Of a stretch of DNA of 64,000 nt, positions 12,632-27,995 are shown piece by piece. The stretch comes from Paracoccaceae bacterium (GTDB lineage: Bacteria; Pseudomonadota; Alphaproteobacteria; Rhodobacterales; Rhodobacteraceae): positions 55,797 to 119,796 of the forward strand of contig JAQWUC010000068.1 in the NCBI GenBank assembly GCA_029242355.1. The letters run 5' to 3'. Each line of letters opens with the position of its first letter. Positions within the stretch are counted from its first letter, which is position 1. A program made the position numbers and the translations under genes. Under the pieces are notes generated by a model. That model saw only the letters and a list, made by a program, of their open reading frames with translations, was not told the origin of the DNA and ran no database searches.

Positions 12632-13234
12632 TCATACCCCCGCTGGATTATCAACTTTTCGTCCTATCGATTTAAGGTCGGAATATCGGTCTCCAATTCG
12701 GTGGTGGGGTCTTCCACCTGTTGCCCCGCCAAGGGCAACAACAATCTCATCCGGTGCTGGAGCATCGTAAATCGAAAATTGTACAGTTATATAATGCGAT
12801 CTTCGTCCTGTATCATGTTTATCCATCAAAGGAATATTGATTTGAGTATTTGCAGGGCCTCTGGAATTAGTAAACCCTAGATAACTTTTAGCCTTTACGG
12901 CTTCTCTATAAAAATTTCCAAACCTTAAAGTATGAATTATGGCAGAAGCATGTTCAATTTCACAGCACGAACCCGCTATCGCTGCCTTCCCATACGCTTC
13001 TATGTTATTGCCAGACCCAGCTAAATTTATTATTTTATCTGACAAAAGCTTCCCAATTACTGGAGCAATGCGATTTATTTCCGGTGATAAATCTTCCACA
13101 AAATCCCTACCTTTCCAAGGATTTTCTAACACAGCTGCAACTCCAAAAATTTTAAGTTGATCTTTAGCATCTCGGCCACCCTCGCGAAATATCTCTTCCT
13201 CAAAAGCTATCACTTTTCTTAATTCAGTAACCAT
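12632..13234 (-). CDS. 'Amino acid synthesis' family protein (DUF1185-like), function unknown
   Basis: 200 aa. LRKVIAFEEEIFREGGR...VLENPWKGRDFVEDLSPE resembles my memory of this family. Not verified by search. Confidence 0.55.
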   Translation of the reverse strand: MVTELRKVIAFEEEIFREGGRDAKDQLKIFGVAAVLENPWKGRDFVEDLSPEINRIAPVIGKLLSDKIINLAGSGNNIEAYGKAAIAGSCCEIEHASAIIHTLRFGNFYREAVKAKSYLGFTNSRGPANTQINIPLMDKHDTGRRSHYITVQFSIYDAPAPDEIVVALGGATGGRPHHRIGDRYSDLKSIGRKVDNPAGV

Positions 13235-13285
13235 TATTATTATACCTCTCAGTTCTTTAGATCTAATGTTCTTTGTAAATATATT

Positions 13286-14944
13286 TCATTCTTGGTTGTT
13301 CACATATCCACCCTTAAAATATAGTAAAGGGTCTCCTGTTTTAAATTTTAAATCAACTACTCTTCCTATTAAAATTGTATGATCCCCAGCATCAATGATT
13401 TTTTCTCGCGCACAAACAAATTTTGACAAAGACCCACGAAGAATAGGTATATCTTTAAACCCCCTTTCCCAATCGTCAGAGAGGAATTTTTTATCACTTT
13501 GCGTTGAAAATAATGTAGAGACACCCCTCTGCTTTTTATTCAACACATTAATCCCAAAATAGTTAGCTTTATTAAAAACTTCATAACTTAAAGCTTTCTT
13601 AGAGAGACAGACTAATAAAAGTGGTGGATCAAGAGATACTGACGTAAATGAATTCGCCGTAAACCCCCGAGGGGTTCCATCAGCCTGAAGCGTAGTGATG
13701 ACTGTAACGCCTGTCGTGAAGTTTCCAAATGCTTCACGTAATTTTGAAGGAGTTACATTACCGTTATAGACCTTATCTCCTGAAGAAAAATAATCGGTAT
13801 TGTGTTCGCCTAAGCTGGGTGGGGATGTTAATTGTGGCTTTTCGCTTAAGTTAAAGTTTAATGGGTTTGATGCTACCAGCCAAGATTCAGAAGGCTTGTA
13901 TGGTTTCGCAACCTTACTAATCATTTTTCTTTTGACGGTATGAGAGTCGTTTATAATATCCTTTACATTGTTCACTGGCCCAAAAGGAACAATACCGCCA
14001 AGTCTTTCAAAAAGCTCTTCCTTAGACAGTACAGAAGTCCATTTAGAGACAGTTTCGTTAACTTCTTCAATATTTTTTTTCCGTGCTAAAAGAGTTGCAA
14101 ACTTTTCATTCTTGATAAACTCTGGAGATCCAATTGCTGTCACTAGCTCCACCCAGAAACGGTCTTCAACTACGCCGATTGCGACCTTTCCATTGGAGGC
14201 AGGGAATATCCCGAATGGAGCAAGAAAAGGATGGCTATTACCTCCAGCACTTGGAATTTTTCCTTCGATGTCATATTGATAAACCGCGCGTTCGCATAAG
14301 CTAATCATGGCATCATACATTGAAATATCAACAAACTGCCCTCTTCCAGTAGATTCTGCATCTCTTAGAGCAGCGACCACACCGAAAGATAAAAAAAGAC
14401 CACTGAAAATATCTCCAATTCCAGGTCCTACCTTTACCACTTTTTCTGGATTTTCTCCAGTAAGATTAATCACCCCGCCCATGGCCTGTGCTACAACATC
14501 GTAGGACGGCCATTGCATATATGGGCTACCACCAGAACGTGGGTCACCAAATCCGCGAATTGCTCCATAAACTAGTTTTGGATTAATCTTTTGAAGTTCT
14601 TCGAATGACAGTCCCAAGCGCTCCATAACTCCTGGACGAAAATTTTCAATCAAAATATCTGTTGTTCGAACTAATTCACAAAAATTGTTTTTCCCATCTT
14701 TGGTCTTAAGATCAAGCTGTACACTTTTTTTATTCCGATTTAAACTAACAAAATAGCCAGCCCACTTTTTTTCCGTGTCGCAGGCGTCATATGGACCATT
14801 AAACCGACTTGTATCGCCATTCTTATCTTCAATTTTTATAACCTCTGCACCATGATCAGCTAAGACCATAGTTGAATAAGGCCCTGATAACATTCGAGTC
14901 AGGTCTAAAACACGAACACCTGATAAAATACCTTGTCTCTGCAA
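13286..14944 (-). CDS. Fusion protein: family-III (CaiB/BaiF) CoA-transferase with a C-terminal flavin-reductase-like domain
   Basis: N-terminus GILSGVRVLDLTRMLSGPYSTMVLADHGAEVIKIE is a CaiB/BaiF signature. The C-terminal ~150 aa (LREAFGNFTTGVTVITTLQADGTPRGFTANSFTSVSLDPPLLLVCL) are HpaC/flavin-reductase-like. The start is a TTG 1 nt from the upstream stop. Confidence 0.8.
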   Translation of the reverse strand: MQRQGILSGVRVLDLTRMLSGPYSTMVLADHGAEVIKIEDKNGDTSRFNGPYDACDTEKKWAGYFVSLNRNKKSVQLDLKTKDGKNNFCELVRTTDILIENFRPGVMERLGLSFEELQKINPKLVYGAIRGFGDPRSGGSPYMQWPSYDVVAQAMGGVINLTGENPEKVVKVGPGIGDIFSGLFLSFGVVAALRDAESTGRGQFVDISMYDAMISLCERAVYQYDIEGKIPSAGGNSHPFLAPFGIFPASNGKVAIGVVEDRFWVELVTAIGSPEFIKNEKFATLLARKKNIEEVNETVSKWTSVLSKEELFERLGGIVPFGPVNNVKDIINDSHTVKRKMISKVAKPYKPSESWLVASNPLNFNLSEKPQLTSPPSLGEHNTDYFSSGDKVYNGNVTPSKLREAFGNFTTGVTVITTLQADGTPRGFTANSFTSVSLDPPLLLVCLSKKALSYEVFNKANYFGINVLNKKQRGVSTLFSTQSDKKFLSDDWERGFKDIPILRGSLSKFVCAREKIIDAGDHTILIGRVVDLKFKTGDPLLYFKGGYVNNQE

Positions 14945-14945
14945 G

Positions 14946-15755
14946 TTATCGTTCCTCCAATTGGATCATTGCTAGAAAGTTATTAAGATGCTCATACATC
15001 TCTTGAGGCCGTTCAAACAACGCCATGTGCCGCAGACCATTTATAATTACAACTTTTGAGTTTGCAATTTCAGCTGCAATCGATCGTGCCATTTCAGGGC
15101 CATTTCCATAATCTTGATCAGCTGTAACAACCAAGGTTGGACACTGTATCATTTCTTCAAGGCCAATCACCTCAGTGACCCCATCAACTAAAACTTTATA
15201 ATTTTTACTGTAAATATCAGTATCATTGGCAAGGACCCAGGAACGCACTAAGTCGATCTTCCTTTCATTATTTTTTGTAAATTTTACGGTGAACCAACGT
15301 GTGATTGCGTCATCTATTGTAGCTGACGGACCATACTCTTTTACCTGATAATATCGCTTAAGGACCGCATCTTGGGCTAGACTAGTTCTTTTGTAGGGGG
15401 AGTTGAGAATAGCCAATCCTTTTACCATAGAAGTGTGGGTTTTACAAAAATGGCGAGCAATCATGCCACCAAGCGAAAAACCCATTATTATAACTTTTGA
15501 GAATTGTAATTCAATTAAAAGAGAATAAAGTTGTTCAGTAAAGGTTAATAGCGATGGATCTTCTTTTGATCTTCTCGACAACCCATGCCCGAAAAGGTCA
15601 TAGCTTAGCACACAATAATTCTCTTTAAGTTTATCAACATGATAGCTCCACAGATTTTTATTTAATCCCAAACCGTGAATAAGAACTACTACGGGTCGAC
15701 TTTTCGTTCCCAAAAGACTATACGAAGTTCCGTTATTGGACATATAATTTTTCAT
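14946..15755 (-). CDS. Alpha/beta-fold hydrolase
   Basis: HG oxyanion motif (VVVLIHGLG), nucleophile elbow GFSLGG, 269 aa. Confidence 0.8.
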   Translation of the reverse strand: MKNYMSNNGTSYSLLGTKSRPVVVLIHGLGLNKNLWSYHVDKLKENYCVLSYDLFGHGLSRRSKEDPSLLTFTEQLYSLLIELQFSKVIIMGFSLGGMIARHFCKTHTSMVKGLAILNSPYKRTSLAQDAVLKRYYQVKEYGPSATIDDAITRWFTVKFTKNNERKIDLVRSWVLANDTDIYSKNYKVLVDGVTEVIGLEEMIQCPTLVVTADQDYGNGPEMARSIAAEIANSKVVIINGLRHMALFERPQEMYEHLNNFLAMIQLEER

Positions 15756-15767
15756 GCTGCGATTTAC

Positions 15768-16157
15768 CTATGAGCCAACATAGGCTACCACTTCAATTTC
15801 AACTCGAACATCGACAAGTAATTCACTTATGACTGCCGAACGTGCAGGTGGATCGTTGGGGAAATACCTGCCATAAACTTCGTTAAAACCAGCAAAATCT
15901 GACCGTTCTCGTAGCCAGACCATGGCTTTAACAACATCAGTAAGATCACAATTAGCTTCCTTGAGTGTCTTTTGGATTTCCTTTATCACTACCTCAGTTT
16001 GCTCTTCAACTGAACCACTCGTCATCGGCGCTCCATCTTTAAACGGTATTTGTCCAGTCAAAAAAATAAAATCGCCAGCCCTAATCGCCTTTGACAGAGA
16101 TAATTTACGGCCGTTAATAATTATAGGATCTCCAATAACTTTCTTTTTCTTTTTCAT
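15768..16157 (-). CDS. RidA/YjgF-family enamine/imine deaminase
   Basis: FIFLTGQIPF...ARSAV...VEIEVVA pattern. The ATG at 16157 (MKKKKKVIG) has AGGAGA 8 nt upstream, so I prefer it to the track's GTG at 16175. Confidence 0.8.
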   Translation of the reverse strand: MKKKKKVIGDPIIINGRKLSLSKAIRAGDFIFLTGQIPFKDGAPMTSGSVEEQTEVVIKEIQKTLKEANCDLTDVVKAMVWLRERSDFAGFNEVYGRYFPNDPPARSAVISELLVDVRVEIEVVAYVGS

Positions 16158-16294
16158 AGTAATTTCTCCTGACACGATTACGCATCAAAAAAATAAAACT
16201 TATAAGTTTTTTTCGACTTAATGTGTCGAATTTTCTTACAAATTTTTATTTTTAACGATCACAATGAGAGATGATAACTAGGAGGTTACTTTCG

Positions 16295-17776
16295 ATGGAT
16301 AATATAACCACATATCAAATGCTTATTAATGGTGACTGGACAGACGCATCTGATGGTAAAAATTTTAACAGCACCAATCCATCAACAGGAGAAATCTGGA
16401 GTACTATCCCTGAAGCTACAGAACAAGACGTCAATAGAGCAATAGAGAGCGCTCATGAAGCTTTCACAGAGGGTCCATGGTCAAAAATGACGCCAACTGA
16501 ACGAGGAGAGTGTTTGCGAAATCTGGGAACACTTCTTGCTGAAAATTCAGAACACTTAGGAAAAATTGAAAGTATTGATACTGGAAAGATGCTAAAAGAG
16601 ACCCGATGGCAAGCAAAATACATTTCTCAGTTTTTTAATTTTTTTGGAGGAAGTGCTGATAAAGTAAGTGGAGAAACTCTGCCTATTGATAAACCAGACC
16701 TATTTGTATTCACTAGCCGCGAGCCTTTAGGTGTTATTGCTGCTGTTGTCCCCTGGAACTCCCAACTATTCCTTGTTGCTGTTAAAATTGGACCGGCTTT
16801 AGCTGCTGGAAATACTGTGGTGTTGAAAGCCTCTGAGCATGCATCGGCGGCGATGTTAGAATTTGGAAAATTGATAGATCAAGCGGGCATTCCGCCAGGC
16901 GTTGTGAATATTATCACAGGACACGGTGATCCGTGTGGAAAAGTCTTGACGTCCCATCCGAAGATAGCAAGAATTTCATTTACAGGAGGGCCCCAAGCAG
17001 CAAGAGAGGTTGTATTAAATTCAGCAGAAAATTTTGCTGAAGTTTCGCTCGAATTGGGAGGGAAATCGCCCTTTATAGTCTTTAACGATGCAAATCTCGA
17101 AAGCGCTGTAAATGCCTCTATTGCAGGAATATTTGGTGCGACTGGCCAAAGTTGCGTTGCAGGATCACGATTATACCTTCAAGAAGAAATTGCAGATGAA
17201 TTCCTCAATAAAATTGTTCAGCAAGCCAATGAGATTATACTGGGAGACCCTCTGGAAGAGGCTACCCAAATGGGGCCTCTTTGTACAAAAAGTCAATTAA
17301 GTCACATTAAAAATCAGATTTCCACTGCGCTTAGGGAGGGAGGCAAGATTCTTTGTGGTGGTGAGGCATGGGGAGATGGGGAAAGTTTATTCTTTAAACC
17401 AACAATCATTTCGTGCCCAAAGCAAAACCTTGAAATAGTTAATACGGAACTATTCGGACCAGTTTTGACAGTAATTAGATTTAAAACAGAGTCTGAAGTA
17501 ATTGAACTTGCGAACGATACCAAATACGGGCTTGCCGCAGGAATTTTCACAAAAGATGGCGCTCGATCCCTGAGAATGACAAAAGCTATAAAAGCTGGAA
17601 TTATTTGGGTAAATACCTATCGGGCGGTTTCTCCCATCGCACAATTTGGAGGATTTAAGCACTCAGGATTTGGTCGAGAAAGTGGTTTTCAGGCAATTTA
17701 TGATTATACCAGACCAAAAACAGTTTGGATAAATACATCCGATGAACCCATTAGTAACCCATTCGTAATGAGATAA
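16295..17776 (+). CDS. NAD(P)-dependent aldehyde dehydrogenase
   Basis: Motifs ELGGKSP, catalytic GQSCVAGSR and FGGFKHSGFGRE. AGGAGG lies 8 nt before the ATG at 16295. Confidence 0.9.
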   Translation: MDNITTYQMLINGDWTDASDGKNFNSTNPSTGEIWSTIPEATEQDVNRAIESAHEAFTEGPWSKMTPTERGECLRNLGTLLAENSEHLGKIESIDTGKMLKETRWQAKYISQFFNFFGGSADKVSGETLPIDKPDLFVFTSREPLGVIAAVVPWNSQLFLVAVKIGPALAAGNTVVLKASEHASAAMLEFGKLIDQAGIPPGVVNIITGHGDPCGKVLTSHPKIARISFTGGPQAAREVVLNSAENFAEVSLELGGKSPFIVFNDANLESAVNASIAGIFGATGQSCVAGSRLYLQEEIADEFLNKIVQQANEIILGDPLEEATQMGPLCTKSQLSHIKNQISTALREGGKILCGGEAWGDGESLFFKPTIISCPKQNLEIVNTELFGPVLTVIRFKTESEVIELANDTKYGLAAGIFTKDGARSLRMTKAIKAGIIWVNTYRAVSPIAQFGGFKHSGFGRESGFQAIYDYTRPKTVWINTSDEPISNPFVMR

Positions 17777-17794
17777 TAAAATAAAGGAAATCAC

Positions 17795-18832
17795 TTGAAA
17801 TTTCAGCTCGCAATAAACTTAGAGAGAGTAGACGACACCATTGATATGCAGGACGTTGCCAAGCATACCTTGGAAATGGTGCAGATGGCCGATAGAAATG
17901 ACTTTAACATAGTATGGGCAGCTGAACACCACGCATTAGAAATGACAATTGCCCCTAACCCATTTCAAATACTCACGTGGTGGGGCGCACATACAAATAA
18001 AATTAGATTAGGAACTGGCGTAGTAGCGGCACCCTATTGGCACCCTATTAAACTAGCTGGGGAAGCCGCTTTTACTGATTTAATAACTGATGGACGATTA
18101 GAGTTCGGAATTGGTTCAGGAGCTTACCAACGAGAGTTTGATCGAATGAAACCAGGATTAAAGCAGACAGATGGTTGGCGTTATATGCAAGAACTTTTAC
18201 CGGCTGTAAAACAACTGTGGAAAGGAGACTACGAACACAAAGGTGATTATTGGAAGTTTCCAACCTCAACATCAGTTCCAAAACCAATTCAAAAACCTCA
18301 TCCTCCCATTTGGGTAGCTGCAAGATCACCAATAACTTATGATTACGCCTTGAAAAACGATTGCAATGTAATGTGCTGGCCGTTCACTCGACCGCATGCA
18401 GAAGCCGAACTTTATAAGCGTTTATTTGAGGAAGCCATAGAAAAAACTCCTGGAGTGAGACGACCTACATTTGCTTTGATGCGGCATACTGCCGTTTATT
18501 CTAAAGAAGAAGATAAAGATATACCCATTACAGCAATTCAAAGAGTTTTAGGCCAGTTTGAAAACCTCTACAAAAACTTAGGAGACGTATCCAATGGATT
18601 TCCAAAACAAATACCCTTGGAAACTCTTACAAATAGGGCTGAATTTGATCCAAATATGCTACGAGAAAATCTTATGTTTGGAACTCCAAAGACAATTATT
18701 TCCAAATTAAAGAAATATGAAGAGCTTGGTGTTGACGAATTTATATATTATGCATCAATGGGGCTTGGGCTGAAGGAACAAAAAAAATCACTTGATCTAT
18801 TTTGTTCTGAGGTTATGCCCGCCTTCAAATAA
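17795..18832 (+). CDS. Luciferase-like (LLM) flavin-dependent monooxygenase/oxidoreductase
   Basis: 345 aa with the TIM-barrel LLM pattern (WAAEHH..., GRLEFGIGSG, PPIWVAA). TTG start. Confidence 0.8.
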   Translation: MKFQLAINLERVDDTIDMQDVAKHTLEMVQMADRNDFNIVWAAEHHALEMTIAPNPFQILTWWGAHTNKIRLGTGVVAAPYWHPIKLAGEAAFTDLITDGRLEFGIGSGAYQREFDRMKPGLKQTDGWRYMQELLPAVKQLWKGDYEHKGDYWKFPTSTSVPKPIQKPHPPIWVAARSPITYDYALKNDCNVMCWPFTRPHAEAELYKRLFEEAIEKTPGVRRPTFALMRHTAVYSKEEDKDIPITAIQRVLGQFENLYKNLGDVSNGFPKQIPLETLTNRAEFDPNMLRENLMFGTPKTIISKLKKYEELGVDEFIYYASMGLGLKEQKKSLDLFCSEVMPAFK

Positions 18833-18849
18833 AATTATAAGGATTACAT

Positions 18850-19653
18850 ATGACTAAAAATGTTGAAGTCACCCGAAATGGTCGGATTCTCGAAGTAAAA
18901 TTAGACCGACCAAAAGTAAATGCGATTGATGTTCAAACAAGTCGCGAACTAGGTGATGCCTTCGCATTGTTGAGAGACGACCCCGAACTTTGGGTAGCAA
19001 TTCTTACAGGCGGTGGAGATCGAATTTTTTCAGCGGGTTGGGATTTAAAGGCATTAAATTCAGGTGATATGACACTTGATAATTGGTGGGAAAATGATGA
19101 TTACGGCATTGGAGGATTTGCCGGCTTAACAGAAAATTGGAATCTAAATAAACCAGTTATTGCTGCTCTTAATGGACTTGCAATTGGAGGTGGTTTTGAA
19201 TTAGCAATCGCGTGTGATCTAATAATTGCAGCAGACCATGTTGAGTTTGGCCTCCCAGAGATGCCTTTGGGAATTGTTCCTGATGCCGGAGCACTGCAAA
19301 GACTACCACGCCTTATTCCGAAAAATATTGCTACTGAAATGTTCCTTCTAGGAAGAAGAATGGGTGCTTTAGAGGCAGCCCATTATGGTTTGATTAATAA
19401 AGTTGTTCCTGCAAAAGAATTAATGAATTCAGCACGAGATTGGGCAAGTCAATTAGCGCGATCAGCTCCTCTGGCACTCCAATCCGTGAAAGAGGTTGAA
19501 AGAGAAATTGAATGTATCCCTCTCGAGAATTCATTCAAAAAAATGAGAACTGAAAACCTACCAACTTATAAGAAAATGTTACAATCATCTGATGCCGCCG
19601 AAGGCGTTGCAGCATTTGTAGAAAAACGAGAGCCAAAATTTAAAGGCGAGTAA
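18850..19653 (+). CDS. caiD: Carnitinyl-CoA dehydratase / crotonobetainyl-CoA hydratase-like crotonase
   Basis: Collinear with remembered E. coli CaiD: TRNGRILEVKLDRPKVNAID, FSAGWDLKA, GGFAGLTE, LNKPVIAALNG..GGGFELA, EKREPKFKG at the C-terminus. Confidence 0.8.
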   Translation: MTKNVEVTRNGRILEVKLDRPKVNAIDVQTSRELGDAFALLRDDPELWVAILTGGGDRIFSAGWDLKALNSGDMTLDNWWENDDYGIGGFAGLTENWNLNKPVIAALNGLAIGGGFELAIACDLIIAADHVEFGLPEMPLGIVPDAGALQRLPRLIPKNIATEMFLLGRRMGALEAAHYGLINKVVPAKELMNSARDWASQLARSAPLALQSVKEVEREIECIPLENSFKKMRTENLPTYKKMLQSSDAAEGVAAFVEKREPKFKGE

Positions 19654-20594
19654 TGTATATAGACATCAATAAAGTAACCACTATATCAAGCCTTGGAGGA
19701 GGGCCAATTGGTGCAGGTTGGGCCGCACATTTTTTGTCAAAAGGGTTTAAAGTAAAAAGTTATATTCACGACATTGAAGAAAAATCAAGTTACGAAACTA
19801 TTATTAAAACAGCATGGAAAAGTTTGAAAGAAATGGGGTTACATGAAGAGGCTTCATTAAAAAACTTAACAATAAGCTCTAGCCTTGAAGAAGTTCTTCA
19901 CGAAACACATTTTGTGCAAGAAAGTATTCCCGAAATACTAGAATTGAAATCAAATTTCTACAAGATACTTGGGGAACTACTTCCAGAGCAAATTATAATA
20001 GCATCATCCACCTCAGGTCTGACGATGACGGAGATTCAAAAACTCTGTGGGACACCAGAGAGAACGGTTATAGGACACCCTTTTAACCCTCCTTACCTCT
20101 TACCTTTAGTTGAAATAGTTGGTGGAAAAAAAACTGCTGCATCAACGATTGACTGGGCATTCTCTTTTTATCAAAGTGCTGGGAAAAAACCTCTTGCCAT
20201 GAAAAAAGAAATTCCAGGTTTTGTTGCTACCCGTCTTCAAGAGGCTCTCTGGCGAGAAGCCTTGCACATGGTGGCCGCCGGAGAGGCAACACCAGAACAG
20301 ATTGATACTGCTTTGATAAATGGACCCGCTCCAAGAATGGCTGTACAAGGGCAATGCATGGCTTTTCACGTAGCATGTGGGTCTGGAGGCATGGCAACTA
20401 ATTTAGATCAGTTTGGACCAGCATTAAAGTTACCATGGACGCGGCTTAAAGCTCCTGAGCTCACAGATAGCTTGCGAAATCAAATGGTCGAAGGTTGCGA
20501 AACTATGTCAAAAGGAAAGGGTTTTGAAGAAATGGCCCGCCAACGTGATAAATCAATCGTAGCTATTCTAAATGCAATTAAAGACAGCAGATAG
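19653..20594 (+). CDS. L-carnitine-dehydrogenase-family 3-hydroxyacyl dehydrogenase (short form, no thioesterase domain)
   Basis: GGGPIGAGWAAHF Rossmann motif, SSTSGL, IGHPFNPPYLLPLVEIVGG, EIPGFVATRLQEALWREALHMV, FGPALKLPWT. TAATG overlap with caiD. Confidence 0.75.
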   Translation: MYIDINKVTTISSLGGGPIGAGWAAHFLSKGFKVKSYIHDIEEKSSYETIIKTAWKSLKEMGLHEEASLKNLTISSSLEEVLHETHFVQESIPEILELKSNFYKILGELLPEQIIIASSTSGLTMTEIQKLCGTPERTVIGHPFNPPYLLPLVEIVGGKKTAASTIDWAFSFYQSAGKKPLAMKKEIPGFVATRLQEALWREALHMVAAGEATPEQIDTALINGPAPRMAVQGQCMAFHVACGSGGMATNLDQFGPALKLPWTRLKAPELTDSLRNQMVEGCETMSKGKGFEEMARQRDKSIVAILNAIKDSR

Positions 20595-20616: not shown

Positions 20617-21660
20617 TCAAAGGCTTCTCTTTGCTTTGCCTTCTAAATTTTCTAAATACCTGGATAAGGTGCCAGGCCAGCTTGGTTTTTTCTCTGACTC
20701 AGGCCACGCCATTCGATAATCGCTAGGTCTTCGACCAAAACAATTTTTAAATGCATATGCGAAATGAGACAAAGTGTTAAACCCAGAGGCTGTAGCAATT
20801 TCTCTTACACTTAGCTTTGTTGCGATCAAAAGAACTCGTGCGTGCTGCAAACGAGCTAACAATCCAAATTGCACAACAGAGCACCCAATCGACTTATTAA
20901 ACTGCCTCTCTAACTGGCGTTGTGAAACTCCAACAAAATGAGCAAGTTCAGGAACAGTTGCTGGCTCACTAATATTTTGTTCGATATACTTAATCGTTTT
21001 TGCGACTAAAGGTAAAAGTTCATCACTATTTCGACCTAGAATTTGCCTTTGTGGACTGCCTCCACTCCGAGGTGGATGATACAACATTTGATCAGCAATT
21101 TCTCCTGACAGCCTTGATCCATGTTCATCTCGAATCAATTTAAGCATCAAATCAATGCCAGAAAAACCGCCGGCACAAGAAATTATTTTATCATTAATTG
21201 TAAAAAGCTGTTCAGATACTTCAATTTCTGAAAATTGTTCTTGAAAGCCTGGGAGCCATGACCAATGAGTTGTTAATTTTTTTCCTGCCAACAGGCCAGC
21301 ACGAGCCACAATATAACACCCTAATTCGACGGAGCATATTTGAGCCCCAAGCGAATATTGTTTTCTAACCCAGGCTGTAAGTTCTCGCCTTGCGTAGTGT
21401 TCACAACCCCAACTGCCCACAATGAAAATTAAATCTTGTCTTTTAATCGTCTCGATAGGCGTTACCGTAGAGATTTCCATCCCATTACTTGCCAATACGA
21501 CTGGACCTTCAAAAGACGAAATCTCCCAAGAATAAAGTTCCTTTAAAGATAAATAATTTGCGACACGCATTGGCTCTATAAGACTGACGAGAGTAGCCAT
21601 ATTGAATCGTGGAACTACAATGAAGGTGGCATTTAATGTCTTATTGCCTTTTTTTTCCAT
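20617..21660 (-). CDS. GlxA-family transcriptional regulator (DJ-1/PfpI-like domain plus AraC HTH), CdhR/GbdR-like
   Basis: 347 aa. The N-terminal amidotransferase-like domain is followed by an AraC-type HTH (VPELAHFVGVSQRQLERQF...SGFNTLSHFAYAFKNCFGRRPSDYR). It is divergent from the BKACE operon. Confidence 0.85.
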   Translation of the reverse strand: MEKKGNKTLNATFIVVPRFNMATLVSLIEPMRVANYLSLKELYSWEISSFEGPVVLASNGMEISTVTPIETIKRQDLIFIVGSWGCEHYARRELTAWVRKQYSLGAQICSVELGCYIVARAGLLAGKKLTTHWSWLPGFQEQFSEIEVSEQLFTINDKIISCAGGFSGIDLMLKLIRDEHGSRLSGEIADQMLYHPPRSGGSPQRQILGRNSDELLPLVAKTIKYIEQNISEPATVPELAHFVGVSQRQLERQFNKSIGCSVVQFGLLARLQHARVLLIATKLSVREIATASGFNTLSHFAYAFKNCFGRRPSDYRMAWPESEKKPSWPGTLSRYLENLEGKAKRSL

Positions 21661-21745
21661 TACACCAACACATACGAATAAATTTCCAAAGTAAATTCGC
21701 CTAATGGGTCAACATTTTGTCGAATTAACGATACTATATCGTGCT

Positions 21746-21781: not shown

Positions 21782-22678
21782 TTGAATTTTAACGTAATCG
21801 TAACGTGCGCAGTAACAGGTGCTGGAGACACAACAGACAAAAGCCCTCATGTTCCAGTAACTCCTAAGGAAATAGCTAATTCGGCAATTGACGCCGCTAA
21901 AGCTGGAGCATCAGTAGTGCATATACATGTAAGAGATCCGAAAACTGGAAAAGGCTCAAGGGATCCAGAGTTATTTCATGAGGTAGTAACGCGAATACGA
22001 GCAAGTAACACAGATGTCGTTATTAATTTAACAGCCGGAATGGGTGGCGATTGGGTTCCAGACCCTCAAAACTTATCAATGCCTGGCGCCGGGACAGACA
22101 TGATTGGACCAGAAGACCGTTTACGACATGTCCAAGAGTGCCTTCCTGAAATATGCTCTCTAGATTGTGGAACACTTAATTTTGGAAATGACAACAGTAT
22201 TTATATTTCAACACCCCCAATATTACGTAAAATGGCTGAATTGACACAAAAATGGAATGTTAAACCTGAACTTGAAGTTTTTGAACTAGGCCACATCAGA
22301 TTCGCCACGCAAATGATTGCGGAGGGCCTCATAGATTCTCCACCAATGTTCCAGATTTGCTTAGGAATTCCATGGGGGGCAGATCAAAGTGTCGACACAA
22401 TGAAAGCAATGAAAGATCATTTGCCCTCAGAGGCGAGTTGGGCTGGCTTTGGAATTTCAAGAATGCAAATACCAATGGCAGTCGCCGCCGTCACACTTGG
22501 AGGAAATGTCCGTGTTGGGTTGGAGGATAACATATTTTTAGAAAAAGGTATTTTAGCCTCAAATGCTGAATTGGTAGAAAAAGCAATCAAACTAATCGAA
22601 ATGATGGGAGCAAAAGTACTTACACCAGCACAAACCAGAGAAAAACTAAATTTAAAAAAAATGAACCCTCAAAGATGA
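21782..22678 (+). CDS. BKACE-family (DUF849) beta-keto acid cleavage enzyme, dehydrocarnitine-cleavage-type
   Basis: [26 protein letters not shown] and [14 protein letters not shown] are hallmark BKACE motifs. TTG start. Confidence 0.85.
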
Positions 22679-22724: not shown

Positions 22725-23879
22725 ATGAATCACACTCACGAAAACCAATTGTTATTAAAAACTGTTAAATCCTTTATGGAGAAAGAAATCTACCCTCATG
22801 AGGCGGGCGTAGATAAGGATGGGTACGTATCAGACGAACTCGGACGGCACATTGAAAAAAAATCAATTGAGATTGGCCTTTATGCAGCCAACCTACCAGA
22901 AAAAGTCGGTGGTGGCGGTTTAGATTATCACGGGATGGCTTTGCTTGAAAGAGAATATGGAAAAACTAGCCACGCACTGCACTCCTGGATTGGTCGACCA
23001 ACAGAAATTTTATTGGCGTGCGAAGGCGAGCAAATACAAAAATATCTTACCCCATGCGTGAAAGCAGAAAAGCGAGAACTGTTTGCCCTAACAGAACCAG
23101 AGGCTGGATCAGATATTATGAGTATGAAATCTAATGCAAAAAAAGATGGAGGAGACTGGATCCTAAACGGTTCAAAACATTTTATCTCAGGCCCATGTCT
23201 CCCAGACTTTGCAATTGTTTTTGCGAGTACAGGAGAAAATAATACACCTAGAGGAACTCGAAAAAGGATCACCGCCTTTCTTGTGGATGTGGGAACAAAA
23301 GGGTTCGACATCCAAGAAGGAAATAAGTGTGTGAGCTACCGCGGATATAAAAATTTTCAACTCAGCTTCAATAATGTTCGCCTAAGCTCGGACCAAATCT
23401 TGGGTCAAGAAGGTTTGGGGTTAGAGTTATCATCCAAATGGCTCAGTATGGGAAGGATATGGGTTGGAGCAACCTGTTGTGGCAAAGCAGAACGTATATT
23501 TGAGTTAGCGAAGGACTGGGCGGCAACTCGAAAACAATTTGGAAAATCTATTGGATCATTTCAAGCTACCGGTTTTCGTTTAGCCGATATGGCAATTGGA
23601 TTAAAAACTGCTGACTTGTTAGTAACTGATGCAGTAACTCAGGCAAACGAAGGCAAAATGAGTGATGCCGATGCAGCAATGGTAAAAGTATATTGTTCTG
23701 AAATGCTGAATAAGGCAGCTGATGATACTGTGCAAATTTTCGGAGGCATGGGGCTTATGGAAGAGTTGCCCATTGAACGCTTGTGGCGAGACTCTCGGTT
23801 AGAACGAATTTGGGATGGAACTTCCGAAATTCAGAAACATATAATAACTCGTTCAATTCTAAGACCCTTGGGCGGATGA
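22725..23879 (+). CDS. Acyl-CoA dehydrogenase
   Basis: ALTEPEAGSD, KHFISG, QIFGGMGLMEE and RIWDGTSEIQ motifs. 384 aa. Confidence 0.9.
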   Translation: MNHTHENQLLLKTVKSFMEKEIYPHEAGVDKDGYVSDELGRHIEKKSIEIGLYAANLPEKVGGGGLDYHGMALLEREYGKTSHALHSWIGRPTEILLACEGEQIQKYLTPCVKAEKRELFALTEPEAGSDIMSMKSNAKKDGGDWILNGSKHFISGPCLPDFAIVFASTGENNTPRGTRKRITAFLVDVGTKGFDIQEGNKCVSYRGYKNFQLSFNNVRLSSDQILGQEGLGLELSSKWLSMGRIWVGATCCGKAERIFELAKDWAATRKQFGKSIGSFQATGFRLADMAIGLKTADLLVTDAVTQANEGKMSDADAAMVKVYCSEMLNKAADDTVQIFGGMGLMEELPIERLWRDSRLERIWDGTSEIQKHIITRSILRPLGG

Positions 23880-25969
23880 ACCCTGTTAAAAAAGAAAATC
23901 TTAAAAGGTTGATGTCTCCAAAAAATATAGCATTTTTTGGAGGAAATGACGTTGAGGTTGCAATTGCAGAAGCTCAAAGACGTGGTTTTAAAGGCCCAAT
24001 CTGGCCAGTAAACCCAAACAGAAAAAATATTTTAGGTATAAAGTGTTTCAAATCCGTCAACGAATTACCAGCTTCACCAGATGCAAGCTTTATCGCAGTA
24101 CCCTCAAGGTATGTTACTACAATAATCAAAGATTTGTCTAACGTAGGGGCTGGTGGGGCAGTTTGCTATTCAGCAGGATTTGGTGAAACTGGAACACAAG
24201 GAAAGCTTTTAGAAAAAGAATTAGCTGCCATAGCCGATAATATGCCAATTATCGGTCCAAATTGTTACGGATTCATTAACTACCTAAGCAACGTAGCATT
24301 ATGGCCCTTTGCCCATGGAGGCATGTCACCAGGGTACGGCGCCGCCATAATTACACAAAGTGGTATGCTGTCTTCAGACATAACCATGACAGATAGATCA
24401 ATACCATTAACTCATATGATTTCAGTAGGAAATCAAGCATCCGTGAGTATAGAGGACTTAATCGATCTTCTCTGCGAAAACCCAAAAGTCAAAGCTATAG
24501 GGGTTCACATTGAAGGAATAAAAAATATTAGGAAACTACATGACGTAGCTTTAAAAGCACTCAAAAAAAATGTTCCCATTGTCGCCCTGAAAACAGGAAC
24601 TTCCACCGTTGGAGAAAAACTAACGGCTACACACACTGGTTCTTTATCAGGAGAAGATAGACTCTATGACGCGTTATTTGAAAGAACTGGAATTATAAGA
24701 GTTGGAAGCCCCATACTCTTCCTTGAGCTTCTTAAGTTATTATGCGTGTCAGGAGTTCCAAGAAACAATACATTAGTGGCATTTACCTGTTCTGGAGGCG
24801 GTGCGACCATGATAGCCGATTATTCAGAAAAAACTGGCCTTATCCTACCGCCTCATAATCAAAATAGTAAAATAAAACTTCAAAATTTGTTACCAAATAT
24901 TGCAACAGTTTCAAATCCGTTAGATTATACGACACCAATTTGGGGCAATCAGGAAAAAACTGGCCCCATATTTTTAACAGCGATGAGAGGATCTCGAGCT
25001 TCGACGGCACTCTTGTTACAAGATTACCCAGCTCAAGGTTTAAACGAATCAGAAACATCTTACTCTAACGACGCCACTGCGTTCATAAAAGCTGCAAAGG
25101 CTTCAAATATGCCCGCCATCATCTGTTCCACCTTTCCAGAAAATATGAAAGGTACAATTAGAGAAAATTTCCTAAAACAAAACATTTCACCAATGCTGGG
25201 CATAGAAAATACTATAGAATCAATCAAACTAGCCTCTGATTATAAAGCAAAGCAGAGGCGTGTAGAGCAAATATCCGTAGAGCCTCTTTCAAAAATACCG
25301 AATTATAAAAAGTTAACATTCTTAAACGAGTCAGAAAGTAAGTCTGCATTGAACAAAGTTGGAGTATCAACTCCCAAAGGACAACGAATAACTTTTCAAG
25401 AAATAGAAACAACCAAAATTATATTAGAATTTCCCGTAGCACTCAAACTAATTAATAAAACAATTATCCATAAAACTGAGTATGGAGCTATCAAGACCGA
25501 CATTAAATCAAAAGATCAGCTTGTTAAAGAAATAAGGTTTATGCATGATCATCTCAAAAAAACTTTAAAAAGCGATTTTGACGATAAATTCCTGATTGAG
25601 GAAATGCAACCAACTCCCATTGTAGAAATGATTATTGGCATAGAACCAAACCCACAATTTGGATATTCACTTTTAATTGGTACTGGTGGTATACAAGCAG
25701 AGATTATGAATGATACTATTTCACTTTTAATTCCAACCAACAGAGATGAAATAATTAAATCAATAAAAAATTTAAAACTTTACAAATTGATGGATAATTT
25801 TCGGTCAAATAAAAGAGTTGATCTTCACAAATTGGCGTCAGATATAATAAAGATTGCTTCTATGATACAGACGAGCAACAAGTCTTATTCAAGTATAGAA
25901 ATAAATCCTCTTTTTGTTTACGCAACTGCAACTTGCGCAGTGGATGCAGTGATCGGATCTGTCGCGTAA
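23876..25969 (+). CDS. ADP-forming acyl-CoA synthetase family protein (CoA-binding plus ATP-grasp domains)
   Basis: N-terminal CoA-binding pattern (KNIAFFGGND...IWPVNPN...SPDASFIAVP), IIGPNCYGFIN, and a C-terminal ATP-grasp-like region. The ATG at 23876 overlaps the ACAD stop (ATGA), so the track's upstream extension is rejected. Confidence 0.8.
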   Translation: MNPVKKENLKRLMSPKNIAFFGGNDVEVAIAEAQRRGFKGPIWPVNPNRKNILGIKCFKSVNELPASPDASFIAVPSRYVTTIIKDLSNVGAGGAVCYSAGFGETGTQGKLLEKELAAIADNMPIIGPNCYGFINYLSNVALWPFAHGGMSPGYGAAIITQSGMLSSDITMTDRSIPLTHMISVGNQASVSIEDLIDLLCENPKVKAIGVHIEGIKNIRKLHDVALKALKKNVPIVALKTGTSTVGEKLTATHTGSLSGEDRLYDALFERTGIIRVGSPILFLELLKLLCVSGVPRNNTLVAFTCSGGGATMIADYSEKTGLILPPHNQNSKIKLQNLLPNIATVSNPLDYTTPIWGNQEKTGPIFLTAMRGSRASTALLLQDYPAQGLNESETSYSNDATAFIKAAKASNMPAIICSTFPENMKGTIRENFLKQNISPMLGIENTIESIKLASDYKAKQRRVEQISVEPLSKIPNYKKLTFLNESESKSALNKVGVSTPKGQRITFQEIETTKIILEFPVALKLINKTIIHKTEYGAIKTDIKSKDQLVKEIRFMHDHLKKTLKSDFDDKFLIEEMQPTPIVEMIIGIEPNPQFGYSLLIGTGGIQAEIMNDTISLLIPTNRDEIIKSIKNLKLYKLMDNFRSNKRVDLHKLASDIIKIASMIQTSNKSYSSIEINPLFVYATATCAVDAVIGSVA

Positions 25970-27028: not shown

Positions 27029-27911
27029 GTTCTTTACCATATCTGTGGGCTTGGAGCCTCTTACCATACCTTTGAGAAACACGATCAAAAATTATTGCTA
27101 GCGCCACAATAGCTAGTCCATTCATTAATCCAAGAGTTAAATACTGGTTCTGAATTGATTGTAGTACTGGCATTCCTAACCCCTTAACACCAATCATAGA
27201 GGCAATAACAACCATTGCTAAAGCCATCATGATGGTCTGATTAACCCCCGCAAAAATGTTTGGTAAAGCCAAAGGTAGTTGTACCGAAAAAAGCTTTTGC
27301 CGATAATCAGATCCAAAGGCTTCAGCCGCCTCAAGAATTTCTTTATCTACTAAACGAATACCTAAATTCGTTAGCCTGATAACTGGCGGAACAGCGTAAA
27401 CACAAACAGCAATTAGTCCAGGGACACGTCCTATTCCCAAAAGCATTACAACTGGAAGCAAATAAACAAAAATTGGAATAGTTTGCATAAGATCTAATAT
27501 TGGTGTTATTGCAGACTGAACTCTGTCGTAGCGAGACATAATAATACCAATCGGGATACCTACGGCAATACACATTATAGTTGCCACCGAAATAAGAGAA
27601 ATGGTAGCCATCATATCTTTCCACATACCGAAGTACCCAATTACCATGAAAGCTAGAATTGACCCAATTGCAAGCTTTACACTTCTAGAACCTAGATAAG
27701 CCAATCCACCAACTAAAACTAATATTAGAGGCCATGGAGCTGCAATTAAGAGTTTCTCTAACCTTACTAAAAAGAAATACAAAGGATCAAAAAAAGCCTC
27801 TATCCCGTCGCCATAGGTTCTAGAAAACTTTTTAAATGCGCCATCTATTCCTTTTTTTAAATCGCGCAAATCACGCTTACCGAGGCTCGGAATTTCAGTC
27901 CAAAAATCCAT
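27021..27911 (-). CDS. proW: Glycine betaine/proline-type ABC transporter permease
   Basis: 296-aa polytopic protein between proV and the SBP, with a typical OpuAB/ProW-like core. Confidence 0.85.
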   Translation of the reverse strand: MDFWTEIPSLGKRDLRDLKKGIDGAFKKFSRTYGDGIEAFFDPLYFFLVRLEKLLIAAPWPLILVLVGGLAYLGSRSVKLAIGSILAFMVIGYFGMWKDMMATISLISVATIMCIAVGIPIGIIMSRYDRVQSAITPILDLMQTIPIFVYLLPVVMLLGIGRVPGLIAVCVYAVPPVIRLTNLGIRLVDKEILEAAEAFGSDYRQKLFSVQLPLALPNIFAGVNQTIMMALAMVVIASMIGVKGLGMPVLQSIQNQYLTLGLMNGLAIVALAIIFDRVSQRYGKRLQAHRYGKEHE

Positions 27912-27954
27912 CTCAAGTTTCCCAGTTGTCTTTATTTATATTATTTAAGAAAAT

Positions 27955-27982: not shown

Positions 27983-27995
27983 CTAAAACGTACCC

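Follow-up and report, generated by a model that had tools for sequence, protein, structure and literature searches.

The trigonelline monooxygenase TgnB depends on free flavin that is reduced by NAD(P)H:flavin reductases of the TgnA type. In the trigonelline (tgn) pathway, ring opening is carried out by TgnA and TgnB (PMC8269262, PMC13236597), of which TgnB is a luciferase-like monooxygenase (LLM; PMC11354265), and TgnF is a DUF1185 protein (PMC7913881). Here, we describe an island, within a 64-kb stretch of DNA (the window), that combines two modules, one oxidative and trigonelline-like, the other CoA-based and carnitine-like, and contains a gene in which a CoA-transferase is fused to a flavin reductase. 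The island is widespread and uncharacterised, and the fusion is found in many marine bacteria. In the reading we favour, to which we give a probability of roughly 60%, the fusion protein is bifunctional, its reductase half feeds the LLM, and the trigonelline-like module is tied to the CoA module. The two-domain architecture is common in databases; we found no characterised member and no paper on the fusion or the gene island.

The oxidative module closely follows the tgn gene set. On the minus strand, a TgnF-like AA_synth (DUF1185) protein (12632..13234; PF06684, E 3.7e-65) is 57–63% identical to its counterpart in canonical tgn-type clusters, and an alpha/beta hydrolase recognised by domain and profile matches (14946..15755) occupies the TgnD position, with a PcaD-like sequence just 25–27% identical to canonical TgnD-position hydrolases. 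This hydrolase is the commonest neighbour of the LLM clade found in the window (clade W; 55 of 84 clustered loci), and a RidA-family enamine/imine deaminase (15768..16175, minus strand; PF01042, E 2.2e-27) is kept at the same position in most window-type loci. On the plus strand, a TgnC-like aldehyde dehydrogenase (ALDH; 16271..17776; PF00171) is 53% identical to the LLM-adjacent ALDH of the S. meliloti and A. junii tgn-type clusters. The earlier note had placed the LLM (17795..18832, plus strand; PF00296) across the divergent promoter. It does belong to that divergent operon, but the first gene past the intergenic region encodes the ALDH, and the LLM gene comes second, 18 nt after it. Pfam bore out the families named for the remaining genes, which are AA_synth, alpha/beta hydrolase, RidA, ALDH, ECH and 3HCDH. 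The earlier note did not recognise the tgn gene set, which this half has; it is a paralogue of the tgn pathway and not an unprecedented assembly.

In sequence comparisons, clade W is sister to the canonical LLMs of tgn clusters. Identity inside each LLM clade is ~70% (71% between Acinetobacter and Sinorhizobium in the canonical clade), whereas the window LLM is 41–42% identical to canonical, TgnB-type LLMs and 49% identical to the pAt clade. Its clade W relatives, at 67–89% identity, come from Alpha- and Gammaproteobacteria and from Actinomycetota MAGs. Since the roseobacter Leisingera encodes a canonical GntR-regulated tgn cluster, clade W is a separate orthologous group.

The fusion gene (13286..14944, minus strand) encodes 552 amino acids, and its start codon lies 1 nt past the stop of the upstream hydrolase gene. 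As the earlier note had claimed, one frame holds a CoA-transferase and a flavin reductase, and all of its open reading frame coordinates were confirmed. Pfam detected an N-terminal CoA_transf_3 domain (residues 7–382, 13799..14926; PF02515, E 8e-114) and a C-terminal Flavin_Reduct domain of the HpaC/TgnA type (residues 407–549, 13298..13726; PF01613, E 5e-38), both on the minus strand. The linker between them (residues 383–406, 13727..13798, minus strand) is unconserved, with a mean identity of 0.27 and none of 24 positions invariant among 38 distinct fusions; in an AF2 model, pLDDT is below 50 at residues 389–394. Overall, the model is of only moderate confidence (pLDDT 75, pTM 0.58) and uninformative on domain coupling. 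Two independent scans of genomes and metagenomes yielded 38 loci with an uninterrupted frame across both halves; these contigs share ancestry, and their counts are not counts of independent events. The two locus scans gave no locus with intact orthologous (at least 50% identical) CoA-transferase and reductase as separate genes, and clustering at 50% reduced the fusion family to about two full-length representatives. Most fusions are ~700 aa and carry the CoA-transferase together with a reductase C-terminal domain, making the window form a short one. Given the conservation of both halves, we take the gene product to be truly bifunctional and maintained by purifying selection.

The best PDB match of the reductase domain is 3rh7 (E 1.3e-38), the reductase of an S. 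meliloti tgn-type cluster with the order AA_synth-hydrolase-reductase-LLM-ALDH. The window reductase half is 46–52% identical to the reductases of tgn-type clusters and is also their positional ortholog. Its motifs SLDPP (SxxPP) and GDH are invariant in the 38 distinct fusions. It amounts to the core of a TgnA-type reductase, without the C-terminal domain of ~150 aa that is found in the ~700-aa homologues and that, in these long fusions, is homologous to the 3rh7 C-terminal domain. In Aminobacter pSR3 and at four other loci, a stand-alone two-domain flavin reductase fills the slot of the fusion, between AA_synth and hydrolase. The presence of a stand-alone TgnA-type reductase in this syntenic slot argues that the LLM has its cognate source of flavin in the reductase half. 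Synteny thus agrees with the partnership that had been proposed, as does the linkage of fusion and LLM: of eight contexts obtained with the fusion itself as seed, seven have the LLM two genes across the divergent promoter, the eighth being broken by insertion sequences, and the LLM is present at all 23 fused loci seeded on the dehydrogenase. The earlier observation that no stand-alone reductase is nearby also held, as tblastn of the 64-kb window with three PF01613-type queries matched the fusion alone, a result that applies to PF01613-type reductases.

The CoA-transferase half is an intact family-III enzyme. Its Asp178 (codon 14411–14413) matches the catalytic Asp in alignments with PDB 4ed9 and YfdE and is invariant in the 38 distinct fusions; 125 of the 376 positions of the CoA_transf_3 domain are invariant. 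The earlier label of CaiB-type does not fit specifically, as the succinyl-CoA:mesaconate CoA-transferase (Mct) profile scores 389 bits versus 127 for CaiB. The top Foldseek matches are SUGCT, YfdW, YfdE and BbsEF. These comparisons place the domain nearest to succinyl-CoA:dicarboxylate transferases rather than CaiB. Its nearest unfused relative, 49% identical, sits in a PrpD-MaoC-ACAD-CoA-lyase dicarboxylate cluster. Relatives of this half use dicarboxylates, not betaines.

The divergent intergenic region between RidA and ALDH (95 bp, 16176..16270) contains the palindrome TTCGAC-N7-GTCGAA at 16212–16230, a candidate operator. Among 51 orthologous intergenic regions, 19 contain the hexamer, compared with ~11% expected. 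A half-site, TGTCGAATT, lies at 21718–21726 in the divergent intergenic region of the AraC regulator described below, and the GTCGAA/TTCGAC motif is common to both promoter regions of the island.

The LLM gene is followed on the plus strand by genes for a CaiD-like enoyl-CoA hydratase (ECH; 18850..19653) and a carnitine-dehydrogenase-like 3-hydroxy-acid dehydrogenase (3HCDH; 19653..20594), and the hydratase lies between LLM and dehydrogenase in every locus. The carnitine-type identity once given to this pair was not supported: both score under the NCBIfam carnitine equivalog cut-offs (NF002936, 326 bits against 500; NF005471, 283 bits against 414), and the dehydrogenase is 33–37% identical to annotated carnitine 3-dehydrogenases. 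Within the 3HCDH family it falls in the free-acid branch, with lambda-crystallin and FHMPC dehydrogenase as nearest PDB entries. Such scores and identities mark the "carnitine" genes as paralogues of carnitine genes. Beyond them lie a GlxA/GbdR/CdhR-type AraC regulator with a DJ-1/PfpI domain (20617..21660, minus strand; GbdR model 239 bits, cut-off 480), a PF05853 gene (21782..22678, plus strand; E 5e-99) that reaches no NCBIfam equivalog cut-off, an acyl-CoA dehydrogenase (ACAD; 22725..23879, plus strand) recognised by domain and profile matches, and an ADP-forming acyl-CoA synthetase (23783..25969, plus strand) with CoA_binding, Succ_CoA_lig and ATP-grasp_5 domains, which probably begins downstream of its annotated start, past the 97-nt overlap with the ACAD gene. 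Domain matches identify an OpuA-type ABC transporter (ATPase, permease and OpuAC binding protein; 25982..28997, minus strand), which is conserved at 82–96% identity in another locus, L005. Together, the ADP-forming acyl-CoA synthetase, ACAD, CaiD-like hydratase, free-acid 3-hydroxy-acid dehydrogenase and BKACE make up the CoA module, which shares a single betaine-type regulator and transporter.

The LLM-hydratase-dehydrogenase triad is found repeatedly in Rhodobacterales, in Hyphomicrobiales and in single-cell genomes of uncultured Alphaproteobacteria, and so is the island as a whole. Among the 17 dehydrogenase-seeded metagenome loci that extend 8 kb to either side, the LLM is present in all 17, in keeping with the earlier note's link between the LLM and carnitine-type genes; ALDH is present in 16, hydrolase, AA_synth and RidA in 15 each, and a reductase in 14. 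At five loci in single-cell genomes, the island is rearranged with every gene kept. Five islands have the reductase without the CoA-transferase (among them the four loci with the stand-alone enzyme), seven have neither fusion half, and one retains a decayed CoA-transferase remnant. Islands without the CoA-transferase, or without both halves, imply that neither half is indispensable and that reduced flavin can be obtained elsewhere. Since the CoA-transferase, or even the entire reductase gene, is absent from some lineages, the fusion, which occurs in Rhodobacterales and in uncultured lineages of Alphaproteobacteria, is a refinement of accessory nature and is not essential to the island. Clade W also occurs without the CoA module, in Pelagibius (FR-ALDH-LLM-AA_synth-hydrolase-TPP-CMD) and in Gammaproteobacteria MAGs (hydrolase-TPP-CMD-LLM), and three loci have the CoA module without hydrolase, ALDH or reductase; the genes may therefore not form one linear pathway.

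How might the fusion function? Synteny suggests that the LLM encoded across the divergent promoter draws its reduced flavin from the reductase half. On the model of the Tgn and Rut pathways, the LLM would open or cleave an N-containing cationic substrate by nucleophilic flavin-peroxide attack, and the hydrolase, RidA, ALDH and DUF1185 protein would then turn the product into an acid and a small amine. Comparative genomics shows that the LLM shares a transcription unit with the carnitine-like CoA module and is, almost without exception, linked to it. The CoA-transferase half could shuttle CoA between CoA-module intermediates, or from succinyl-CoA, and would stand in for the thioesterase of the canonical carnitine pathway. 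The substrate may be a betaine or N-heterocyclic osmolyte that is related to trigonelline and carnitine and probably distinct from both.

It is conceivable, although we consider it unlikely, that two independent pathways, a marine tgn pathway and a gamma-butyrobetaine/carnitine pathway, lie side by side, the fusion being a neutral stop-codon loss with no mechanistic coupling. Such a split would assign LLM, reductase, ALDH, hydrolase, DUF1185 and RidA to one pathway and synthetase, ACAD, hydratase, dehydrogenase and BKACE to the other. All five tgn families are present, LLMs 72–74% identical to that of the window bear the JGI label [quoted passage not shown], and the best NCBIfam matches of the right-hand genes are CaiD and carnitine dehydrogenase. 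Pelagibius has the modules apart, with one LLM copy each, and several lineages do without the fusion. However, the window LLM is only 41% identical to a canonical clade that is itself 71% conserved, and the Leisingera cluster sets clade W apart as an orthologous group. Independent pathways also leave unexplained the type-D loci, where the LLM is part of the hydratase-dehydrogenase operon and all other tgn-like genes are absent, and the dehydrogenase subfamily essentially never occurs without the LLM. Finally, recent stop-codon loss predicts a separate neighbouring orthologous CoA-transferase, which was present at 0 loci, and both fusion halves are under strong constraint.

The CoA-transferase half could instead act mainly as a sensor that binds a pathway acyl-CoA or acid, as does the C-terminal effector domain of HPAH C1 and TgnA-type reductases, restricts NAD(P)H oxidation to times when substrate is available and limits wasteful H2O2. 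The C-terminal effector domain of the HPAH C1 reductase is autoinhibitory, TgnA-type and C1-type reductases have a second, non-catalytic domain (PDB 5zc2, 3rh7), and the short window form, without the reductase C-terminal domain, retains the CoA-transferase. We nonetheless find this improbable, as invariance of the catalytic Asp and a third-of-a-domain's worth of positions (125/376) exceeds the needs of a binding module. Most fusions, at ~700 aa, have both the CoA-transferase and the C-terminal domain, so the former is no simple substitute for the latter. Slightly less probable again is that the reductase half is general, or the partner of another enzyme, and that the LLM draws on the cellular pool of reduced flavin. 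Two-component systems generally use freely diffusing flavin, four islands without a reductase gene presumably work, and type-D loci lack one within 10 kb; against this stand the positional and sequence orthology (46–52%) to tgn-type cluster reductases, the status of the fusion as sole PF01613-type gene in the window, and its presence alongside the LLM in all of the intact fusion contexts examined. That a sequencing or assembly frameshift or missed stop joined two genes, for which we found nothing beyond the a priori caution of the earlier note, is excluded by the same unbroken frame on 38 contigs from genomes and metagenomes and by both domains in 120/120 best database matches, and the fusion is also encoded in isolate genomes and a closed plasmid.

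We therefore return to a bifunctional fusion that feeds the LLM and ties the two modules together. As in the tgn pathway, an LLM, a reductase, an ALDH, an alpha/beta hydrolase and a DUF1185 protein are all present in the window; unlike in canonical tgn clusters, the LLM falls in a sister clade and the hydrolase is PcaD-like by sequence.

The 552-aa protein encoded at 13286–14944 on the minus strand joins a family-III CoA-transferase domain (CoA_transf_3, PF02515; residues 7–382, spanning profile positions 1–366 of 366, E = 8e-114) to a C-terminal flavin reductase domain (Flavin_Reduct, PF01613; residues 407–549, E = 5e-38), as the earlier note had proposed. A frameshift or missed stop codon is disfavored by two independent scans, in which the luciferase-like monooxygenase (LLM; 17795–18832, plus strand) served as seed for species-representative genomes and the carnitine-dehydrogenase-like gene as seed for metagenome contigs. 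In the scans combined, 38 loci carry both halves in a single unbroken frame, and no locus encodes an intact orthologous CoA-transferase (at least 50% identical) and the reductase as separate genes. Both Pfam domains are present in 120 of the 120 best database matches, which are 55–99% identical to the fusion. Across 38 distinct fusions, 125 of 376 positions are invariant in the CoA-transferase and 29 of 143 in the reductase, with none in the 24-residue linker. An AF2 model (pLDDT 75) predicts both folds joined by a disordered linker; AF2 and Foldseek confirm the folds alone and are uninformative on coupling between the domains. The combined architecture is absent from all 50 Foldseek matches listed, no PDB or NCBIfam entry joins a CoA-transferase domain to a flavin reductase, and our literature search found no paper on such a fusion or on the composite island that carries it. 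Clustering at 50% identity collapses the fusion family to about two full-length representatives, and its next relatives are unfused CoA-transferases of ~400 aa or tandem ones of ~800 aa (30–46% identity), a pattern that fits a single fusion event.

All genes originally listed around the fusion are present by ORF mapping and Pfam, in two operons that diverge from a 95-bp intergenic region. The leftward operon encodes, in order, RidA, an alpha/beta hydrolase, the fusion (which starts 1 nt after the hydrolase stop codon) and an AA_synth (DUF1185) protein. The rightward operon encodes an aldehyde dehydrogenase (ALDH) and, starting 18 nt past its stop codon, the LLM, followed by a CaiD-like hydratase and the carnitine-dehydrogenase-like gene, the start of which overlaps the hydratase stop. 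The island continues past the stretch first delimited, with a GlxA/GbdR-type regulator (20617–21660, minus strand), BKACE (21782–22678), an acyl-CoA dehydrogenase (ACAD; 22725–23879), an ADP-forming acyl-CoA synthetase (ending at 25969) and an OpuA-type ABC transporter (25982–28997, minus strand). The mechanically called synthetase ORF begins at a GTG and overlaps the ACAD gene by 97 nt (23783–23879); its true start is probably further downstream. The fusion is both the sole PF01613-type reductase of the 64-kb window, in keeping with the original remark that no stand-alone reductase is nearby, and its sole family-III CoA-transferase; the gene at 17795–18832 is its sole LLM. The G+C content is 0.35–0.43. 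The nearest genome locus, in the Rhodobacteraceae MAG NAT185, is collinear for 18 of 18 query sequences at 63–96% identity. Together these point to a streamlined roseobacter lineage of low GC as the probable source of the window.

HDAC-like amidohydrolase and agmatinase-family ureohydrolase genes (10365–12617) adjoin the DUF1185 gene. Both are kept beside it in the closest genomes (L005 and L006), and the ureohydrolase occupies the same place in three other loci (L062, L066 and L067). These genes may be part of the island, for example for a guanidino or acetylated precursor. At 33677–37347, an amidinotransferase/DDAH-like gene, a class I/II aminotransferase and a TPP-dependent decarboxylase form a group similar to an arginine-transaminase-type route. 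Taken with the agmatinase-family gene at 11580, this group points to catabolism of guanidino compounds nearby. Upstream, at 5215–10323, a hexuronate catabolism block (UxaC, a mannitol-dehydrogenase-family oxidoreductase and UxuA) and a D-serine-dehydratase-like gene have no relation to the fusion.

If the fusion is a single protein, what does each half do? In the reductase half, S437/P440/P441 (SxxPP) and G520/D521/H522 (GDH) are invariant across the aligned fusions; we take these motifs to be marks of HpaC/TgnA-type flavin reductases. The top PDB match is 3rh7 (E = 1.3e-38), which itself gives a full-length match (E = 1.1e-204) to the 311-aa flavin reductase of the S. meliloti plasmid cluster. 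The reductase half is 46–49% identical to the reductases of the S. meliloti and Acinetobacter junii clusters, our stand-ins for the tgn proteins of A. baylyi ADP1, and it groups with TgnA by gene set, by its slot beside the hydrolase and DUF1185 genes and by homology. On plasmid pSR3 of Aminobacter sp. SR38, where the entire island is syntenic with the window, the slot between the AA_synth and hydrolase genes holds a stand-alone 326-aa reductase; a stand-alone reductase is found in the same slot in four other loci (L040, L055, L127 and L135). Because it is orthologous and shares this slot, the reductase half is the island's TgnA equivalent. The supply of reduced flavin to the LLM, first suggested in the earlier note, would follow from the same orthology and position.

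The CoA-transferase half belongs to family III, as do all of its top Foldseek matches (SUGCT, YfdW, YfdE and BbsEF, each of ~400 aa). Asp178, in a GIGD motif, falls at the position of the catalytic Asp in alignments with 4ed9 and YfdE and is invariant in sets of 38 and of 36 fusions; in this family the catalytic Asp (Asp169 in Frc/YfdW) forms an acyl-aspartyl anhydride. The CaiB-type identity first given to this half fails, with 127 bits for the CaiB model NF002914 against an equivalog cut-off of 413. All NCBIfam equivalog cut-offs lie above its scores, including that of the best model, succinyl-CoA:mesaconate CoA-transferase (Mct, NF041294; 389 bits, cut-off 700). The succinate-glutarate CoA-transferase model follows at 259 bits, an order that makes succinyl-CoA:dicarboxylate transferases the nearest enzymes. 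The nearest unfused relative, 49% identical, is in a PrpD/MaoC/ACAD/CoA-ester-lyase cluster of Tistrella. We infer that this half would move CoA among the acids of the island. One possibility is that it activates a dicarboxylate produced by the ALDH; it is also possible that it recycles CoA from a product thioester, which is the role of the thioesterase domain in the canonical carnitine pathway.

Homologues of the fusion fall into two length classes, of ~555 aa and ~700 aa. The longer class (L089, L090, L092 and L175–L177) ends in an extra domain of ~150 aa, a homologue (32% identity, E = 3e-21) of the C-terminal domain of the 3rh7-type reductase, and the 552-aa form in the window has lost it. 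Seven islands (L053, L062, L066, L067, L122, L130 and L142) have neither reductase nor CoA-transferase. One locus, L145, contains a 516-aa ORF (3632–5182, minus strand) made up of a truncated, decayed N-terminal CoA-transferase piece, the reductase and the C-terminal domain, and appears to be a fusion now losing its CoA-transferase half. Given these seven islands and the decayed form, the fusion is an accessory of the island. Public databases name it 'CoA transferase' (PGAP) or a 'CaiB-like/flavin reductase' protein. Some ~700-aa fusions (matches P0083 and P0094) are named '(E)-2-((N-methylformamido)methylene)succinate hydrolase' by JGI, the name of TgnD. Since the Pfam domains on record for these two proteins are the CoA-transferase and reductase alone, the name is probably an annotation slip from the neighboring gene or KO.

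The linkage originally proposed between fusion and LLM is borne out by gene neighborhoods. The same island surrounds the fusion in 7 of 8 fusion-seeded contexts, among them Shimia gijangensis, Roseovarius spongiae and plasmid pW43B of Parasedimentitalea marina; the eighth is interrupted by insertion sequences. In the dehydrogenase-seeded set, the 17 loci flanked by 8 kb or more in each direction all contain the LLM and the hydratase, and nearly all contain BKACE, ACAD, the synthetase and ALDH (16 each) and the hydrolase, DUF1185 and RidA (15 each); a reductase is present in 14 and the fused CoA-transferase in 11. All genes are also kept in a rearranged architecture found in alphaproteobacterial single-cell genomes (L043, L046, L047, L059 and L064).

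The LLM matches PF00296 over profile positions 14–314 of 314 (E = 4.6e-49), and LLMs 67–89% identical to it occur in Alphaproteobacteria, Gammaproteobacteria and Actinomycetota MAGs. Its identity is 49% with a third clade (Agrobacterium pAt) and 41–42% with the LLMs of A. junii and S. meliloti; those two share 71% identity. These values place it outside the TgnB orthologous group of the canonical tgn (trigonelline-type) clusters, in a sister group, clade W, whose members are 69–89% identical to the window LLM. Since Leisingera is a roseobacter with the canonical clade, clade W is a distinct group and not simply the roseobacter version of it. The KO-based JGI name 'trigonelline monooxygenase', found on relatives 72–74% identical to the LLM, is an extension by similarity. 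Both this label and 'MFMS hydrolase', the latter on the fusion, are over-extended for clade W.

Clade W LLMs occur in several other contexts. A Pelagibius arrangement reads FR / ALDH / LLM / DUF1185 / hydrolase / Xsc-like TPP enzyme / CMD, and Gammaproteobacteria MAGs have hydrolase / TPP / CMD / LLM beside a GbcA-like Rieske oxygenase. Three loci (L088, L010 and L084) have LLM / hydratase / dehydrogenase / regulator / BKACE / ABC / ACAD / synthetase, with hydrolase, ALDH and reductase absent within 10 kb. Pelagibius sp. Alg239-R121 (L087 and L088) has both arrangements, with one LLM copy in each (82% identical), and the window-type island looks like a merger of two such units at the LLM. LLM similarity clusters track taxonomy, not gene context, so context-specific LLM subfamilies are not definable. 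The hydrolase, beside the LLM in 55 of 84 clustered loci, is among its most consistent partners; in one large group the hydratase/dehydrogenase/BKACE set is also consistent. These varied contexts complicate a single linear pathway.

Other neighbors hint at the substrate. In Gammaproteobacteria MAGs (L085/L086, 7041–13794), a clade W LLM has a GbcA-like Rieske oxygenase beside it, accompanied by an Xsc-like TPP enzyme, CMD and a class II aldolase, and a Rieske oxygenase of the same Pfam type lies between ALDH and LLM in one roseobacter-type island (L176, 3038–4180). These may be a further pointer to a quaternary-amine or N-methyl substrate. In Shimia and one metagenome contig the island is bordered by genes of the MTTB family, a quaternary-amine:corrinoid methyltransferase type (L089, 13171–14724; L091, 599–2167 and 12135–13670), which would agree with demethylation of a betaine product in the vicinity.

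Are the two halves of the island expressed together? The 9-mer TGTCGAATT is present in both promoter-bearing intergenic regions (3 matches in 64 kb; 0.8 expected). The RidA/ALDH region contains a palindrome, TTCGAC-N7-GTCGAA (16212–16230), and the regulator/BKACE region a TGTCGAATT half-site (21718–21726). Among orthologous intergenic regions, 19 of 51 and 30 of 56 contain the hexamer, where about 11% would be expected. A motif common to both regions hints at one regulator for both halves, and the palindrome is a candidate operator of the GlxA/GbdR-like regulator. Counts from a generic promoter/terminator scan were not above those of shuffled sequence.

As an observation, the pairing of fusion and LLM stands in full. 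The interpretation first placed on it is partly supported: the reductase-to-LLM link has good support, whereas the CoA-transferase role is argued from family and gene context. We consider it possible, with a probability of roughly 0.3, that the ~16-kb island (12.6–29.0 kb) encodes a single pathway, as yet undescribed, for the catabolism of a nitrogenous osmolyte that is abundant in the sea and is neither trigonelline nor carnitine. Oxidative cleavage by the LLM would be obligatorily coupled to CoA/BKACE chemistry, the fusion would link flavin supply to CoA transfer, and major groups of ocean bacteria would carry the pathway, among them Planktomarina, other streamlined roseobacters and uncultured alphaproteobacterial single-cell genomes. 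The island is widespread: its hosts include Planktomarina and other roseobacters, uncultured alphaproteobacterial single-cell genomes, Hyphomicrobiales, sponge- and worm-associated Gammaproteobacteria and Acidimicrobiales MAGs. A search with the LLM returned 6248 proteins at E ≤ 1e-10, which represent the wider LLM family; the best 120 of the 6248 are all 72–91% identical. Phytoplankton and bacteria exchange carbon and nitrogen in large part through small nitrogenous osmolytes, among them glycine betaine, homarine, trigonelline and carnitine, and the homarine pathway appeared in the literature as late as 2026 (PMC13236597). By tying a two-component flavin monooxygenase to CoA-thioester chemistry, the fusion is a "Rosetta stone" that provides a handle on the substrate, and cultured hosts exist in Parasedimentitalea marina W43, Shimia gijangensis, Roseovarius spongiae and Aminobacter sp. 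SR38.

The known system closest to the oxidative genes is the tgn pathway of A. baylyi ADP1, in which TgnA/TgnB open the ring (PMC8269262, PMC13236597), TgnB is an LLM (PMC11354265), and TgnF, a DUF1185 protein, stimulates the SSA dehydrogenase TgnE (PMC7913881). Five families of tgnABCDEF are common to the island: an HpaC-type reductase (TgnA), LLM (TgnB), ALDH (TgnC position), hydrolase (TgnD) and DUF1185 (TgnF). The genes of the oxidative half were correctly recognized at the outset, but they are the already known tgn set in a different clade. The S. meliloti plasmid (pSymA) cluster reads GntR / AA_synth / hydrolase / reductase / LLM / ALDH / ... / SSADH, an order also seen on the A. junii and Leisingera plasmids. 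Unlike tgn, the island has no SSADH (TgnE) and no GntR regulator, adds RidA, fuses its reductase to a CoA-transferase (without the C-terminal domain in the window form) and places its LLM in an operon with the hydratase and dehydrogenase genes. Set against the clusters of S. meliloti, A. junii and Leisingera, the LLM and hydrolase are not orthologues of the canonical tgn proteins. Identity to the canonical cluster is 53% for ALDH and 57–63% for DUF1185, and falls to 25–27% for the hydrolase. As the LLM and hydrolase, the proteins expected to recognize the substrate, are the most diverged, the chemistry may be similar and the substrate different.

The CoA genes recall the gamma-butyrobetaine/L-carnitine pathway, the outline of which was reportedly given for S. 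meliloti by Bazire and colleagues in 2019. With this pathway and the Pseudomonas cdh genes the island has in common ADP-forming synthetase, ACAD, hydratase, dehydrogenase and BKACE families, a GbdR/CdhR-type regulator and a betaine-type transporter. The "carnitine-type" label of the earlier note is therefore right as to enzyme families, but scores fall below the carnitine equivalog cut-offs. The best model for the hydratase is CaiD (crotonobetainyl-CoA hydratase, NF002936), at 326 bits against 500; the dehydrogenase scores 283 against 414 (NF005471) and 244 against 592 (NF005716) with the L-carnitine dehydrogenase models; and the GbdR-like regulator scores 239 against 480. The dehydrogenase shares 33–37% identity with carnitine 3-dehydrogenases annotated on plasmids, whose thioesterase domain it lacks; the module is therefore carnitine-like, not canonical. 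In contrast to the carnitine pathway, with its dehydrogenase-thioesterase, an LLM heads the operon. The scores and identities rule out the canonical carnitine pathway as an exact identity. The nearest solved relatives of the dehydrogenase, lambda-crystallin (L-gulonate 3-dehydrogenase) and FHMPC dehydrogenase, act on substrates that are not CoA esters, which would fit a partner for BKACE.

The Rut pathway, with RutA (LLM), RutF (reductase), RutC (RidA) and RutD (hydrolase), follows the same four-part logic, recalling enamine processing after oxidative ring opening. However, RutB and RutE have no counterpart in the island, RutA is absent among the 25 best LLM models, and the matches to RutC (48.8 bits against 169), RutD (54.8 against 238) and RutF (87.3 against 255) are weak and below threshold, ruling out membership. 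The homarine hom operon, compared by description, encodes HomA (FAD-binding), HomB, HomC (peptidase) and HomD (PMC13236597), protein types that differ from the LLM/DUF1185/hydrolase set and make it an unlikely identity for the island. No connection was made to the R. pomeroyi carnitine transporter cntTUVW (SPO2995–2998), as the adjacent SPO2994 carries the annotation of a peptide/nickel/opine-type periplasmic transporter component and cntTUVW is probably of that class, unlike the island transporters.

The fusion itself is best compared with enzymes that resemble its parts. Its N-terminal half has the fold and aligned catalytic Asp of Mct, SUGCT, YfdW/Frc, YfdE and BbsEF, and its FMN-binding reductase core is homologous to those of the S. 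meliloti SMa0793-type reductase (PDB 3rh7) and of HPAH C1 from Acinetobacter baumannii (PDB 5zc2, E = 2.6e-34). Unlike these two-domain reductases, it has its extra domain at the N terminus, where it is a complete CoA-transferase with the catalytic Asp conserved; their C-terminal domain is kept in the ~700-aa fusions and missing from the window form. StyA2B is likewise a natural fusion in which the flavin reductase of a two-component flavin system is joined to another enzyme (PMC6017014). There the partner is the oxygenase itself, whereas here it is a CoA-transferase and the oxygenase is encoded by a separate gene.
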